Shown here: positions 2,795-8,423 of the stretch, in pieces
How positions within the stretch are numbered: position 1 is the first letter of the stretch
How the letters are laid out: the number at the start of each line of letters is the position of its first letter
IMG/VR virus record: IMGVR_UViG_2563366805_000011
DNA: 9,154 bases
DNA from: a virus
Lineage: Duplodnaviria > Heunggongvirae > Uroviricota > Caudoviricetes
Direction: 5' to 3' (one strand)
Position numbers and translations under genes: made by a program
The notes under the pieces: model-generated
The model's database searches: none
Told to the model about the DNA's origin: nothing
What the model saw: only the letters and a program-made list of their open reading frames with translations

Positions 2795-5387
2795 TTGCAT
2801 ATTCCTTAGCCCAGCGGGGCAGTGATAATGTCTTAATAGCTGGCCATTCATCGGTATTCAGGCAGTCAGACAGGGTTCGCAGATTGCGGTGATATTCCTG
2901 TTGACCTGCCAGTTTTGCTTCTTCGCCCATCATGAAAATTTCAACCGGATAACGTCCGCATTCAATAGTTGTGCTGGCAACCAGAAAAACGAAAGTTGGC
3001 TGCACTCCAAACTGTGCTTCATAACCGTCACTGTAGAATGCATCCTGAACGTGATAGCGGTAGTCGTAATAAGCGGTTTTGAATCGTTGAATATCCGCCG
3101 TAGTTTTCACGTCCATGATCCAGTGAAATTCAGGGATAATTTTGTCCGGACGGCACCGACACAAAATTCCTGTTTCAGGATCTTCCCAGTAAATTGATGA
3201 TTCAGCGTGTCCGGCGCTTTCAACAAGCCATTGCCCCAGCGGCAAAGCCATAACGCTTTGATACATGAGTTCAATTTTCCGGCCTTCTTCCGCAGTGATA
3301 ACCGTTTTTCCTGTGCTTGCGCATTCCATCAGAAACGCTTTCTCTTCTTCTTTTCCGGCGTTTGTACGGCGGTTAAATTCAGGTGCTACGATAAAGCGGT
3401 TACTGAATTCTTCCGGTTCAAGTACCCGGCAGTGGAAAGCAGTTCCTAAATCGAGCGTTTTTGTCTTTGTGGTGTCCACGGGGGCATTTTTACGCCACAA
3501 ATATAGTGCCGGAGTATCAGCAATGTCATCGAGCTGAGACTTACTGATACCGGGACCCGCGTGGTAATTCTCATTCGAAATTCCGTAATAAATACCTGGC
3601 TCTATGTCTTCTACGATTACGGGATCTGCGACTTCGCCAGTTTCATCACTGCAATCGCGATGCGGATCGCTGCCAGCATTCTCATTGTGCGGATGTTCAG
3701 CGCCTTCCATTTCCTCCGGATCATTTTCCTTAGCTTCAACCTGACTCTCTTCATCGAATGTTTCCTGGTATGTTGCGTCGCCCATCACCGCACCACAGTC
3801 AGGGCAGTTATCCCCGCCAGTCTGGCCGCAGGCATTGCAGGCTATTTCCGGTTCCTGTTGCACTACTGGCTCAGGTTGATTCATATCTGGGCTGGTTTTT
3901 TCCGTTTCTGGCTGGTTCTGGTACACACAATCGCGAGTCTGGATCCCCTTTACCCATTTCGGATCGTTCGGGTCGCTAATTCCGTCAACAAATTCACCAC
4001 GTGATGCAGCAAGCAATTTATCGTCATCGACAGGATTTTTTGATGGAATGTTTTTCCGGGCTTCATGGAGTTCTGCCCGCAGTTCCTGATATTTCGCATC
4101 AACAGAATTTACCTGTGACTGAGCATCCAGCGGCTGCGTGTCCTGATGATGTTCAGTTGCGTCCGGTTCCATTGTTTCAGCCTCTCCCTGTTCAACTGCC
4201 GTTGTTCCAGATGGTTGCGGTTTTTCTTCATCATCCTGTTTTCCTTCTTCTGTTACTCGCTGCGGCATCGGGGCAGAGGAGCGACCGCAGGCAATATCCA
4301 CGATTTCCGGATCAGGGTTGGCATGATCGGTTTCAGTCAGTACTTTGTTCAGATATTCAGTGACGTGCGCGGGGATGACCTCGATCCCAATTGGTGCTTC
4401 TTTTACGGACGCAACCACGATGGCGCGGGAATAATCCAGCCCGCCAGGCATGGTGATGAATTTGTCGCGGAAAACAGAAAAGGGCGGTTTATTTTCAGCG
4501 ATAATTTCCTCAATGCGTTTAGCGTGTGCCGGATGAAGGTTATAGATGTCCAGATCCATTGAACGGGCCAGTACGCCAGTGGCTACGTCGCGCGCCAGTG
4601 ACGTCAGATCGTGTACGAAACCTTCGCCGCGATCGGTGAGGTTTCCGCCGCCAGCATTAGCACCGGAAGCCGTGCGAGTGATGTGTGAAACACGATTACC
4701 CTTCATCCACTCTTTTGTCAGCAGTCCTCGATCGGTGTAGTCAGCGTTCAGGTATGCTTCGAAAAAAGCAGTTATCAGTCCCAGGTTTGAATTACCAGGA
4801 TTAGGGAAAACTTTGTCAGTGTCACGAACCAGTTTGTGGAGTTCGCGAATTTCCAGCGGGTCGAGCAGGCTGGTTTTGTGGGAAACAGCCAGGGCAGTAA
4901 CAGCCGGTAGTTCTTCAGCCCGAGCAATGTGTAATGCCTGGAGTCCGTCGCGTGAAACGTGCGTTACCGGTTTTTCGCTGCCGTGTTGAGCAAGCCAACG
5001 AATGGGCAGTTCCTGGCCAGAAATTGGGAGTAGCATATTCTCCTCAATCTCAGTCATGTCTTCGCCGTTGACGTTGGTATTGCCTTGATAGTGAGCGTTG
5101 TCTGGTGCTGCTCCCGGTTTTAGTTCCCATGTCATGGAGTCTTTGCTGAGTTGATAGCGTTCACTCCAGGTAAAATCGATCTCACCTTCAGCGGGCAGGT
5201 CATTAACGACAGGAAAATTCGTGGCAACAGCTTTAAAATAGCTGCTCAGTTTTTTACCTGACTTAACGATCAGGTAGTCCAGAGTGGCACAGGTCGATTC
5301 AAAATCGTTGCTTGCCCACAGGACGACGTCAGGTTCACTGGATGATTTTTTCGCTTTCCGTAACAGGAAGAGTGGTTTTGTGCTCAT
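2787..5387 (-). CDS. recE: RecE exodeoxyribonuclease VIII (5'-3' dsDNA exonuclease), 866 aa
   Basis: Minus-strand 866-aa ORF, ATG 5387..5385, TAA 2789..2787. Same length as Rac RecE as I recall. The C-terminal third (from about residue 590, ...[18 protein letters not shown]...) is the nuclease domain region; the N-terminal two thirds contain an acidic low-complexity segment and a CxxC-x7-CxxC motif. Paired with recT immediately downstream. Confidence 0.95.
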
Positions 5388-7322: not shown

Positions 7323-7457
7323 TCACATCTTGTTGCTACGTATAGCGACTTCTGCCTGCCAGAGATCCCAGTCGTTGCTGCGTAAAGCCTGCACAGCCTG
7401 GTTGTAAGTGATACCGCAACAATCCATCAAATACTGAACTACTTCGTAATGCACCAT
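7323..7457 (-). CDS. ydaG: Small protein YdaG, 44 aa, function unknown
   Basis: Absent from the ORF track. I translated it by hand: minus-strand ATG 7457..7455 preceded by a strong SD (AAGGGGAGAG, about 5-nt spacer) gives MVHYEVVQYLMDCCGITYNQAVQALRSNDWDLWQAEVAIRSNKM, with TGA at 7325..7323. The 44-aa length matches recalled YdaG. The name is assigned by size and position and could be swapped with ydaF. Confidence 0.7.
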   Translation of the reverse strand: MVHYEVVQYLMDCCGITYNQAVQALRSNDWDLWQAEVAIRSNKM

Positions 7458-7489
7458 CTTATCTCTCCCCTTAACGCCGGGTGGCGGAA

Positions 7490-7645
7490 CTAACTGCTGC
7501 ACTGCAAAATTTGAATCCCGCCGTCATGTTCATACGCCTCGGGCTGGCTACTTAACCCCTTACCACTGCCTGGTAACTCGAAGTATTGCCCTGCGTTCTG
7601 TGGGGCGGGGTGGGTTGGTAGGTATATAATGTACTTTGTGTTCAT
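7490..7645 (-). CDS. ydaF: Small hypothetical protein (YdaF-like), 51 aa; doubtful
   Basis: Minus-strand ORF with tandem ATGs at 7648..7646 and 7645..7643 (MMNTKYIIYLPTHPAPQNAGQYFELPG...); 51 aa from the second ATG matches recalled YdaF length. There is no recognisable SD, and the start lies inside the operator/promoter-like cluster (7626..7670). The track's 72-aa version starts at a GTG. Confidence 0.45.
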   Translation of the reverse strand: MNTKYIIYLPTHPAPQNAGQYFELPGSGKGLSSQPEAYEHDGGIQILQCSS

Positions 7646-7670
7646 CATTGTAAAGTACTTTAAGTACATT
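7626..7670. promoter_or_regulatory. Operator-like repeat cluster with a candidate leftward PL-like promoter
   Basis: ATGTACT (7629..7635), a perfect 12-bp palindrome TAAAGTACTTTA (7651..7662), and the reverse-complement copy AGTACAT (7663..7669). On the minus strand, TTTACA (7654..7649), a 17-nt spacer, then CATTAT (7631..7626), pointing toward ydaG-kilR-recET. Prediction by eye only. Confidence 0.4.
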
Positions 7671-7744
7671 TTATGTATAAAAAAATGAGACGGGATAAAG
7701 TGAAGCACAAACCCGGAGGGGGACGCTACCGGATTTATGCTGAT

Positions 7745-8164
7745 TTAAGAGGCTTTTTGTTTTTTCTTTCGTGCTAACTCTTCGTAAATTGCATTGTACT
7801 TCTGTTTTTTCTCCTCAAGAGTTTTTAAAAGTTCATCTGTCTCACTGTCAGGGAGCTCGTCCAGAAGGTCAATGATGATTTTTTGTCTTGGATTTAACTC
7901 CTGATAGAAACGTATCTGTCCACTTTCTTCTGTATCCTCTCCCAAAAGATAGGTTGGTGTTGTTCCAATGAGTGTTGCTAATTCCCTTAATTTCTCTCGG
8001 CGAGGAATTGTTTCACCATTAAACCATTTGCTAACCGCTTTTGGTGTTAATTTCATTCGACGGGCAATTTCTGCCTGCCTTCCATGTTGTTCATAACCAG
8101 CGTTTTCACAGGCTAGCGCAAGCCTACTGGCGAACTCTTTACGCGCTTTATCTTCATGAACCAT
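7745..8164 (-). CDS. racR: Prophage repressor, cI-like XRE-family HTH protein (RacR-like), 139 aa
   Basis: Minus-strand; ATG 8164..8162. The N-terminal half has an XRE/cI-type HTH (FASRLALACENAGYEQHGRQAEIARRMKLTPKAVSKWFNGETIPRREKLRELATLIGTTPTYLLG); the C-terminal half is a charged, coiled-coil-like tail with no S24 peptidase domain. It is divergent from a Cro-like gene, with operator-like repeats on both sides. No SD upstream, consistent with a leaderless transcript. I recall K-12 RacR as 158 aa, so this may be an allelic variant or my recollection of the length is off. Confidence 0.8.
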   Translation of the reverse strand: MVHEDKARKEFASRLALACENAGYEQHGRQAEIARRMKLTPKAVSKWFNGETIPRREKLRELATLIGTTPTYLLGEDTEESGQIRFYQELNPRQKIIIDLLDELPDSETDELLKTLEEKKQKYNAIYEELARKKKQKAS

Positions 8165-8171
8165 AAGTTCA

Positions 8172-8200
8172 ATGATATTCGCTCTTGAATGTACTGTCAG
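8172..8200 (-). promoter_or_regulatory. Candidate PRM-like sigma70 promoter for racR (leaderless)
   Basis: On the minus strand, CTGACA (8200..8195), a 17-nt spacer, then TATCAT (8177..8172); the predicted start falls at or next to the racR ATG (8164). There is no SD upstream of racR. An ATGTACT operator-like site overlaps the -35/spacer. Prediction by eye only. Confidence 0.45.
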
Positions 8201-8222
8201 TTCTGTTATGGCATGTACTCAA
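8187..8222. promoter_or_regulatory. Two direct ATGTACT repeats in the racR/cro divergent intergenic region (candidate OR operators)
   Basis: ATGTACT at 8189..8195 and 8213..8219, 24 bp apart, inside the 79-bp interval between the divergent racR and Cro-like starts. The same heptamer recurs in the region downstream of racR. Confidence 0.45.
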
Positions 8223-8243
8223 AGTTCACATTGTGAGGATGAT

Positions 8244-8423
8244 ATGAACCAGAAAACACTTGAAGATGTAATCAAAACTGTTCGCGTTTCTGTTGTGGCC
8301 GACGTTTGTGGTGTCAGCCAAAGAGCAATCTACAAATGGATGGATAACGGAAAATTGCCTCGCACAGAATATACCGGCGAAACAAATTACGCTGAAAAAA
8401 TGGTGATGCTGCCAACTTACTGA
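8244..8423 (+). CDS. Cro/YdaS-like HTH regulator; 3' end fused to the IS1 left end (probably truncated)
   Basis: Plus-strand ATG 8244 with GAGGA 4 nt upstream; HTH-like segment (QKTLEDVIKTVRVSVVADVCGVSQRAIYKWMDNGKLP). Native sequence ends at 8401 (52 codons); the last 7 codons and the TGA stop (8421..8423) lie inside the IS1 left inverted repeat. It occupies the position of the first rightward gene (ydaS in K-12 Rac). The track's 83-aa version starts at an upstream ATG (8172). Confidence 0.7.
   Translation: MNQKTLEDVIKTVRVSVVADVCGVSQRAIYKWMDNGKLPRTEYTGETNYAEKMVMLPTY

Follow-up and report, generated by a model that had tools for sequence, protein, structure and literature searches.

The 9,154-nucleotide stretch of DNA analysed here (the window) very probably carries a Sp10-like prophage at the Rac site whose immunity switch comprises five 17-bp operators of the HK022/933W type, to which dimers of a 139-aa repressor would bind. 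As judged from the letters of the DNA, the region is a lambda-like immunity switch of the HK022/933W type, with operators of a kind long known. The initial annotation had proposed OR/OL-type operators overlapping divergent early promoters, and this proposal was borne out; the predicted sites match HK022 in layout, spacing and promoter hexamers. The left arm of the window is Rac-like (int, recET, kilR, sieB, ydaF and ydaG). In 1047 of 5426 complete E. coli genomes (about one in five), a match covers at least 80% of the region from 7450 to 8420. A Shigella flexneri locus (L015) is 99% identical and is without IS1 at the position where the window carries this element.

The heptamer ATGTACT was found at the coordinates first given for it, namely 7629-7635, 8189-8195 and 8213-8219 on the plus strand, with its reverse complement AGTACAT at 7663-7669, and the 12-bp palindrome TAAAGTACTTTA was confirmed at 7651-7662. 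On both strands of the whole 9154-bp window the heptamer occurs four times in total, with no copies beyond these four, whereas 0.77 copies were expected from dinucleotide-preserving shuffles (four or more copies in 0 of 200). Because the heptamer had been picked post hoc, a correction was made by asking how often any 7-mer reached at least four copies in the shuffled pair of non-coding patches, which occurred in 54 of 5000 shuffles (p ~0.011). The earlier statement that the repeat is unlikely by chance is thus moderately significant for the heptamer alone and becomes decisive once an independent pattern derived from HK022 is added: the 15-mer TGWACNNNNNGTWCA gave seven matches with at most one mismatch versus 0.93 expected, five of them at the operator places (three exact and two with one mismatch), and the core GWACNNNNNGTWC (GWAC-N5-GTWC) gave exactly five matches in 9154 bp versus 0.36 expected, all at the operator places. 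The predicted functional unit is a 17-bp pseudo-palindrome of 6-N5-6 form, (A/T)TGWAC-N5-GTWCA(T/N), of which the heptamer is one arm; ATGTACT represents the better-conserved arm in four of the five operators.

Two of the predicted operators, all of which are given without a strand, lie in the patch downstream of the repressor gene. OL1 (ATGTACTTTGTGTTCAT, 7629..7645) is composed of the arms ATGTAC and ATGAAC, overlaps the PL -10 hexamer, has an exact core with 0 mismatches to the HK022 15-mer, and aligns with the HK022 oL site TGTACTTAAAGTTCA; in E. coli alleles its substitutions lie in the N5 spacer and the outermost base. OL2 (AAGTACTTTAAGTACAT, 7653..7669) abuts and overlaps the PL -35, shows an exact core and a match to the 15-mer pattern, aligns with the HK022 oL site AGTACCAATAGTACA, and includes AGTACAT together with half of the 12-bp palindrome. 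On the other side of the gene, OR3 (ATGAACCATAAGTTCAA, 8156..8172) has its centre at 8164, where the A of the repressor ATG doubles as the predicted PRM +1; its 15-mer is identical to HK022 oR3 (TGAACCATAAGTTCA), likewise annotated across the cI start. OR2 (ATGTACTGTCAGTTCTG, 8189..8205) sits inside the PR spacer and covers the PRM -35; it aligns with HK022 oR2 (TGTACTATCAGTTCC) and has a weak right arm (GTTCTG). OR1 (ATGTACTCAAAGTTCAC, 8213..8229) lies over the predicted PR start and aligns with HK022 oR1 (TGAACCATAAGTTCA). Both OR2 and OR1 show an exact core and a match to the 15-mer pattern. The centres are thus located at 7637 and 7661 for OL (24 bp apart) and at 8164, 8197 and 8221 for OR (33 and 24 bp apart). 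The initial inventory had captured one arm of each of the other four sites but missed OR3 and the rightward promoter at 8185-8212. A third OL site was sought 24 bp to the left and to the right of the pair (centres 7613 and 7685), and neither inspection by eye nor the core search revealed one; at centre 8245, where a further OR site would fall, there is an ATGAAC arm contributed by the cro-like start codon but no partner arm. A candidate description of the sites as palindromes centred on GTAC was rejected, as extension failed at OR1 while the 6-N5-6 reading fits all sites.

Both minus-strand promoters named in the initial annotation were recovered by the promoter scan and fit HK022, PL corresponding to the annotated pL hexamers and the PRM layout being conserved. 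The PL-like leftward early promoter (7626..7654, minus strand; -35 TTTACA at 7654-7649, 17 nt, -10 CATTAT at 7631-7626) is directed into the ydaG/ydaF/kilR/recET operon, and its hexamers coincide with the HK022 pL -35 and -10 and are kept in the OL regions of relatives. The PRM-like repressor promoter (8172..8200, minus strand; -35 CTGACA at 8200-8195, 17 nt, -10 TATCAT at 8177-8172) scored 10 of 12 matches in the scan. Between the end of its -10 and the repressor ATG there are 7 nt and no Shine-Dalgarno sequence, and this arrangement is conserved in enterobacterial relatives, with CTGAYA-17-TAnnAT-7 nt-ATG gapless in Salmonella, Raoultella, metagenomic and HK022 relatives. Because the -10 lies exactly 7 nt before the ATG, the repressor mRNA is predicted to be leaderless and to start at the A of the AUG.

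The PR-like rightward promoter (8185..8212, plus strand; -35 TTGAAT at 8185-8190, 16 nt, -10 TATGGC at 8207-8212) was placed by homology; the consensus scan needs T as the sixth base of the -10, and PR is absent from its output because that base is not T. It coincides with the annotated -35 and -10 of HK022 pR, with a 16-nt spacer in both, and in all relatives the -10 lies precisely in the gap separating OR2 from OR1. The -10 is weakened in the window allele; it reads TATAGC in three of four aligned close E. coli relatives and TATATT in ETEC1717, and distant relatives have TATAAT or CATAAT. Just past the repressor stop codon, a hairpin on the minus strand (7704..7741) folds at -19.4 kcal/mol (z = -5.7; 0 of 200 shuffles as stable), and the diverged ETEC1717 allele retains its stem arms but differs in the loop. 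This hairpin, which has a poor U-tract, is possibly a terminator or an insulator between the PRM transcript and PL.

For comparison, the HK022 operators were taken from the annotation of GenBank X16093.1, in which the features are labelled 'potential' binding sites (a literature search turned up no HK022 footprinting paper), and facts on the 933W operators were taken from PMC3317979 and PMC3202840. In X16093.1 the oR sites lie at the cI ATG, at +33 and at +57 (centres 3007, 3040 and 3064), the same offsets as in the window, and in both DNAs a pair of oL sites is separated by 24 bp and the pL and pR hexamers occupy matching positions. They also share the word TGWAC-N5-GTWCA, the complement of three right and two left sites, and a PRM whose -10 is separated from the ATG by 7 nt. 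Apart from OR3, individual window operators differ from their HK022 counterparts by 1-5 bases. The two systems diverge in other respects: HK022 CI has 235 aa with an S24 peptidase/oligomerisation domain, whereas the window repressor has 139 aa with a helical C-terminus of ~50 residues; the left arm is Rac-like (recET, kilR) in the window but nun/cIII/kil in HK022; and HK022 has an extra core site 324 bp to the right of the cI start, where IS1 replaces the corresponding window DNA.

The phi24B/933W record (EF517298.1) follows the same plan: its OR3 is placed at the start of cI, and on the left it has no more than two sites, spaced by 24 bp. Like the window, 933W uses a 15-bp rotationally symmetric site with G-W-A-C at positions 2-5 (PMC3317979). 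Its arms, however, read CGWAC and the first residue of its recognition helix is S41, as opposed to TGWAC and P41 in the window, and its OR spacings are 32 and 24 bp rather than 33 and 24 bp. The C-terminal domain of the 933W repressor is of the S24 type but of another lineage, and its binding is reportedly non-cooperative (PMC3202840).

From Enterobacterales to Pasteurellaceae, ~40 homologous loci keep the operator register. Measured from the repressor ATG, exact cores in 39 homologous loci fall almost solely at -57, -33 and 0; with few exceptions, offset 0 is occupied in the relatives from Enterobacterales, Vibrio and Pseudomonas. In 26 of these 39 loci, an OL-type pair with a spacing of 22-25 bp (nearly always 24 bp) lies on the downstream side of the repressor operon. 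Spacings in Pasteurellaceae are similar (24 and 31-34 bp), but the leader there is ~20 nt. Among close E. coli alleles, changes fall in the N5 spacers and between operators, and the DNA to the left of OL2 drifts. Outside the core, the family profile has T or C adjoining the core and A/T at the centre, in agreement with the measured preferences of the 933W repressor (PMC3317979).

The immunity repressor is encoded by an ORF on the minus strand (7745..8164; 139 aa, WP_000233319-type) that is annotated in O157 Sakai, where the Sp10 repressor is ~99% identical to it at the DNA level. Residues 1-75 form an HTH of HK022/933W type; a disordered linker joins it to a C-terminal helical domain of ~50 residues, in which the AF2 model shows two helices. 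Identity is 46% to HK022 CI over 99 aa and ~51% to 933W-type CI in the N-terminal domain; the recognition-helix stretch TPKAVSKWFNGE has an almost identical counterpart in HK022, and K42, S45, K46, W47, F48 and N49 of the recognition region are invariant among the relatives compared. In the 933W model, K42 and K46 contact the GWAC bases, and K46A abolishes specific binding (PMC3317979). A PDB sequence search with the repressor returned nothing beyond a weak match to the N-terminal domain of P22 C2, and no solved structure of HK022-type specificity. Pfam assigned HTH_3/HTH families only, with no Peptidase_S24 domain found, and full-length relatives that bear S24 align only over residues 1-~100. 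Since the repressor is without an S24 autocleavage domain, derepression cannot follow the RecA-cleavage route of lambda. The helical C-terminal domain in place of S24 is a mildly unusual feature already noted for Sakai Sp10, whose repressor was reported to be without a peptidase domain and which was not induced by mitomycin C (PMC2669165). Similarly, Gifsy (PMC3121763) and Sakai Sp6/Sp9/Sp10 (PMC2669165) have short non-cleavable repressors relieved by antirepressors.

Several other explanations of the repeated word were weighed. The idea that the repeat reflects chance or the base composition of AT-rich intergenic DNA draws on the post hoc corrected p of ~0.01 for the heptamer alone, but the HK022 15-mer and core counts were reached in 0 of 200 shuffles and the operator positions are conserved across genera, which makes coincidence vanishingly improbable. 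The view that the GTAC-centred heptamer, or else the palindrome TAAAGTACTTTA, is itself the binding unit has in its favour that GTAC is self-complementary and that no other word is repeated as exactly as the heptamer. As a unit, however, the heptamer was not upheld, because OR3 and many sites of relatives have GAAC/GTTC and no GTAC with the register unchanged, and because every site has a conserved partner arm at a distance of 5 bp. The palindrome proved to be an incidental by-product of the OL2 left arm: although kept in Sakai, it is broken in three of four aligned close E. coli relatives (TAAAGTACTTTT or TAAAGTACATTT), and HK022 reads TAAAGTACCAAT in its place. Furthermore, the 933W repressor protects two ~6-bp blocks that are symmetric about the central bp of its 15-bp site (PMC3317979). 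Either word is very improbable as the unit.

An assignment of the sites to the K-12 Rac repressor RacR, as made in the initial annotation, is consistent with the position of the repressor gene, which is that of racR in a Rac-like left arm, yet the protein has 36% identity to K-12 RacR over a 33-residue HTH stretch only, and K-12-like genomes match the window only up to 7620. Whether the RacR operator had been defined at such resolution was initially left open; for K-12 it has been footprinted as (T/A)TAGGC-N3-GCCTA(T/A) (PMC9638921), and the window has a different operator type, known from annotation in HK022 and from measurements in 933W. The TAGGC-N3-GCCTA pattern has six matches in K-12 Rac; in the window it gave one 2-mismatch match, inside the repressor coding sequence and no more than expected by chance, and the word is absent from both regulatory patches. 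Conversely, K-12 Rac has no site scoring at least 10/12 on the arm-based 17-mer score. The repressor is thus not K-12 RacR, and RacR operators are an extremely improbable identity for these sites. K-12 Rac nonetheless resembles the window in element type, gene order, the presence of three intergenic operators and an O3 over the repressor ATG (PMC9638921, PMC5700373), and has two further RacR-operator matches to the left of racR, whereas the repressors are unrelated beyond a generic HTH and the operator words are unrelated. The PaaR2/YdaS region of CP-933P is likewise a cryptic lambdoid switch with a leaderless repressor and OR/OL sets overlapping PRM, PR and PL, but its operator word consists of GTTTAGTAA repeats, absent from the window, and PaaR2 is followed by a toxin-antitoxin pair (PMC8630535). 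As to which protein uses the sites, the sequence alone does not tell, and K-12 YdaS reportedly does not repress racR, indicating that lambda-like sharing is not universal (PMC9638921). Use by the Cro-like protein alone or by the repressor alone is nevertheless unlikely, given that both proteins are homologous to the HK022 pair and that the position of the core follows that of the repressor gene in ~40 loci in which the N-terminal domains are conserved. In lambdoid phages generally, CI and Cro share operators (for CP-933P, see PMC8630535).

With five shared HK022/933W-type operators, dimers of the 139-aa HTH repressor would bind all five sites, and by analogy the Cro-like protein would bind the same five. 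Occupation of OR1, at the PR start, and of OR2, in the PR spacer beside the -35, would shut off the rightward cro-like, ydaT and replication genes, while OL1 and OL2, which cover the PL -10 and -35, would keep the kilR/recET operon off. OR3, positioned on the +1 and ATG of a leaderless mRNA, could provide negative autoregulation or Cro-mediated shut-off of PRM. Because OR2 overlaps the -35 hexamers of both PR and PRM, it is not obvious that repressor at OR2 could activate PRM as in lambda, and cooperativity at the 24-bp pairs is only a possibility, because the C-terminal domain differs from that of HK022 CI and 933W is non-cooperative. We infer here the binding itself, the order of occupancy, any cooperativity and the effect of OR2 on PRM, whether activation or repression.

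The switch in the window is partly decayed, both by the weakened PR -10 and by an IS1 in the cro-like gene (8244..8401, plus strand; HK022 Cro type), which is cut after codon 52. Its intact counterpart in Sakai, of 84 aa, shows 62% identity over 73 aa with HK022 Cro. Similarity to all relatives stops at 8401, and the sequence from 8402 is read as an IS1 end followed by insA/insB-like ORFs.

In its main lines this is a standard lambdoid switch, and the result is confirmatory rather than surprising. It does correct a likely mis-annotation, in that the 'racR' of Sp10-like prophages at the Rac site (in O157:H7, Shigella and many E. coli) would be a repressor of HK022 specificity, to which the toxicity and operator results for K-12 RacR/YdaS are not transferable. 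The exact operator and promoter coordinates can be used for reporters, CRISPRi and derepression of the recET/kilR arm. More tentatively, a domain-swap repressor that joins a DNA-binding domain of HK022 specificity to a short, helical, non-cleavable C-terminus, with operators that are nearly those of HK022, might confer SOS-proof cross-immunity to phages of HK022 immunity. Since OR2 lies on both -35 hexamers, a geometry conserved from Enterobacterales to Pasteurellaceae, the switch may operate without lambda-style cooperativity or PRM activation. The fixed 24/33-bp operator register around a leaderless repressor gene provides a signature of the family across gamma-proteobacteria.

The ATGTACT heptamer to which the initial annotation had drawn attention occurred in four copies in the window, complement included, all within the two non-coding patches beside the repressor gene (139-aa HTH protein, 7745-8164, minus strand) and exactly at the coordinates reported. 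Against 0.77 copies expected in 9154 bp, none of 200 shuffles reached four; in a test that allows for the heptamer having been picked after inspection, some 7-mer reached four copies in 54 of 5000 shuffles of the patches, and by itself the repeat is moderately significant. Every heptamer has a GTWC (W, A or T) behind it, separated by a stretch that varies: ATGTACT-TTGT-GTTC at 7629, ATGTACT-GTCA-GTTC at 8189, ATGTACT-CAAA-GTTC at 8213 and, on the complementary strand, ATGTACT-TAAA-GTAC at 7669. In a 6-N5-6 reading, the sites are pseudo-palindromes with arms ATGWAC and GTWCAT, and a fifth, ATGAAC-CATAA-GTTCAA (8156-8172), whose centre is the A of the repressor ATG, contains no GTAC; the GTAC heptamer does not define the site, and the count had to be corrected to five. 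Exactly five copies of the core GWAC-N5-GTWC stand in the window (0.36 expected), all at the predicted operators, with left centres (OL1, OL2) at 7637 and 7661, 24 bp apart, and right centres (OR3, OR2, OR1) at 8164, 8197 and 8221, spaced by 33 and 24 bp.

Proposed initially as OR/OL-type operators over divergent early promoters, these sites were found to have close counterparts in phage HK022, and that functional reading was essentially right. In a protein search of the phage collection, the repressor N-terminal domain was 46.5% identical to HK022 CI; the recognition-helix stretch is near-identical (TPKAVSKWFNGE in the window, TPKAISKWFNGE in HK022), and the divergent Cro-like protein (gene starting at 8244, plus strand) shares 62% identity with HK022 Cro. 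Annotated in the HK022 record X16093.1 are the pL and pR hexamers, three oR sites (3000-3014, spanning the cI ATG at 3007; 3033-3047; 3057-3071) and two oL sites (2201-2215; 2225-2239). OR3 is identical in HK022 and the window (TGAACCATAAGTTCA), while HK022 and window read TGTACTATCAGTTCC and TGTACTGTCAGTTCT at OR2, TGAACCATAAGTTCA and TGTACTCAAAGTTCA at OR1, TGTACTTAAAGTTCA and TGTACTTTGTGTTCA at OL1, and AGTACCAATAGTACA and AGTACTTTAAGTACA at OL2. The leftward promoter TTTACA-17-CATTAT named at the outset coincides with HK022 pL (-35 TTTACA, -10 CATCAT), and the proposed repressor promoter has a layout, CTGAYA-17-TAnnAT-7 nt-ATG, common to relatives and HK022. PR was missed by a consensus promoter scan; HK022 pR, TTGACT-16-CATAAT, falls on window TTGAAT (8185-8190)-16-TATGGC (8207-8212).

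The five predicted operators were shown to overlap three promoters. Under the HK022/lambda paradigm, repressor dimers on OR1 and OR2 would block PR, with OR1 covering the PR start and OR2 filling the spacer and touching the -35, while OL1 and OL2 would lie over the PL -10 and -35 and silence kilR and recET. By the same analogy, OR3, on the +1/ATG of a predicted leaderless message, would turn PRM off at high repressor levels or with Cro bound. The OR2 centre falls at -33 of PRM, and the site includes the PRM -35 hexamer, so that activation of PRM from -42, as in lambda, cannot simply be assumed. Directly after the repressor stop codon lies a hairpin with a 15-bp stem (7704-7741, minus strand; -19.4 kcal/mol, z = -5.7), whose arms are kept in a diverged allele in which one change turns a U-G wobble into U-A; with its poor U-tract, it may terminate PRM transcripts before PL.

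The window carries left-arm genes of a Rac-site prophage (int, xis, ralR, recT, recE, kilR, sieB, ydaF and ydaG, from ORFs and annotated relatives), and the repressor had been taken for RacR. In the complete E. coli genome search, however, the match of K-12-like genomes ended at 7620 (7450-7620 matched, with complete divergence beyond), placing a mosaic junction with K-12 Rac at about 7620, directly beside the PL start and OL1. Since, in addition, identity to K-12 RacR was 36% and limited to a 33-residue HTH stretch, and the Cro-like protein and K-12 YdaS are unrelated, the 'racR' label is positional only. RacR operators were excluded as the identity of the sites by this weak protein match and by comparison with the RacR operators (PMC9638921); K-12 Rac held no site of at least 10/12 on an arm-based 17-mer score. 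CP-933P-type repeats (PMC8630535) are absent from the window. A binding unit consisting of the heptamer or of a 12-bp palindrome is at odds with the GAAC-armed sites that occupy the same register, and with the palindrome being lost in most close relatives and in HK022. A chance origin of the repeat was excluded by the excess of the core and by an HK022-derived pattern search.

In K-12 MG1655 Rac itself (L001), two RacR-type sites, TAGGTAATGCCTA (3131-3143) and TAGGCTATGCCTA (3156-3168), are spaced by 25 bp in the interval from ydaG to the racR 3' end and form a putative OL-like pair for the K-12 repressor; RacR operators were the subject of a 2022 NAR paper, which mentions neither ydaG nor sites on the ydaG side. 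The ydaG-position ORF of the window (7323-7502, minus strand) is open for 59 aa, as annotated in Sakai (44 aa in K-12), and has a marginal Pfam UBA_4 (UBA-like) match (23.0 bits, cut-off 21.8).

The match ran through 8401 in O157:H7 Sakai and in about 1047 of the 5426 complete E. coli genomes, and the same immunity module was found in a Qin-like prophage (L004) beside ydfA-C and dicB, in a different context in locus L003, and in phages Tritos and vB_EcoS-673R7. Close E. coli alleles (87-99% identity) keep the operator arms; their variation lies in the N5 spacers, the outermost base and the DNA separating the operators, and the sequence left of OL2 drifts heavily. Upstream regions of more distant repressors (62-72% identity in the HTH domain; Salmonella, Raoultella, metagenomes), several with a full S24 peptidase C-terminal domain, align gap-free to the window from the ATG, with the same three sites. 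A family scan with one genome per species returned 43 loci, in which the exact core stands at -57, -33 and 0 from the repressor ATG in Enterobacterales, Vibrio and Pseudomonas, and at -56, -32 and 0 in a 933W-like subgroup. Pasteurellaceae roughly keep the spacings (24 and 31-34 bp), and because a leader of about 20 nt, bearing a Shine-Dalgarno in Haemophilus, Volucribacter and Gallibacterium relatives (L038, L049-L055), precedes the repressor coding sequence, the third operator lies upstream of the ATG. In 26 of 39 loci, the repressor operon is followed downstream by an OL-like pair of cores spaced by 22-25 bp (nearly always 24), and elsewhere in each locus of about 5 kb the exact core is almost absent. 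In the Salmonella relatives, the repressor gene is separated from the OL pair by a HigB/HigA-like toxin-antitoxin pair (L006, 3053-3720; L007, 3088-3755), which fills the slot of rexAB in lambda and of paaA2-parE2 in CP-933P. HK022 (L013) and a Kluyvera relative (L023) have an extra exact core 324 bp cro-ward of the repressor ATG, inside the cro-cII region; in the window, IS1 replaces the equivalent DNA.

The repressor N-terminal domain was also 50.7% identical to 933W/phi24B CI. The 933W site is a 15-bp symmetric sequence in which positions 2-5 (G-W-A-C) are critical, while position 6 favours T or C and the centre A/T; K42 and K46 are modelled to contact the G-W-A-C bases, and specific binding is lost in K46A (PMC3317979). 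The window's repressor family has both lysines invariant, and the family-wide site profile computed here has, outside the core, the base preferences of 933W. Operator family, layout and recognition chemistry are already known from HK022 annotation and 933W biochemistry; that HK022-type operators are used by the Sp10-type 'racR-position' repressor was nowhere stated explicitly in the literature searched.

After a predicted disordered linker (77-89), the repressor C-terminal domain is a helix-turn-long-helix (helices 92-103 and 106-138) without a Pfam match over residues 77-139; it is about 65% identical in Salmonella relatives of 138-151 aa; in full-length relatives from Raoultella, Klebsiella and Enterobacter, an S24 peptidase takes its place. 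Cooperativity of the repressor depends on the C-terminal domain. Non-cooperative binding has been reported for the repressor of 933W (PMC3202840), whose C-terminal domain is different again. Because the S24 domain is absent, RecA-stimulated cleavage cannot inactivate the window's repressor, for which a Gifsy-type antirepressor route (PMC3121763) would be an analogy only. At the Rac attachment site of Sakai, prophage Sp10, whose repressor is reported to have no peptidase domain, was not induced by mitomycin C (PMC2669165).

From 8402 to the window end (9154) we read an IS1 copy, with an inverted-repeat end followed by insA/insB-like ORFs, which cuts the Cro-like gene after codon 52. The insertion appears strain-specific, since none of the 5426 complete E. 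coli genomes in the collection searched matched beyond 8401, and the host may be Shigella-like and rich in IS1. Compared with four close alleles, the window carries G instead of A at 8210 in the PR -10 (TATGGC for TATAGC) and A instead of G at 8239 beside the cro-like Shine-Dalgarno, changes shared by E. coli ECONIH4, which is 100% identical over 7450-8401. Together with IS1, these two changes look like decay, or like selection against rightward expression.
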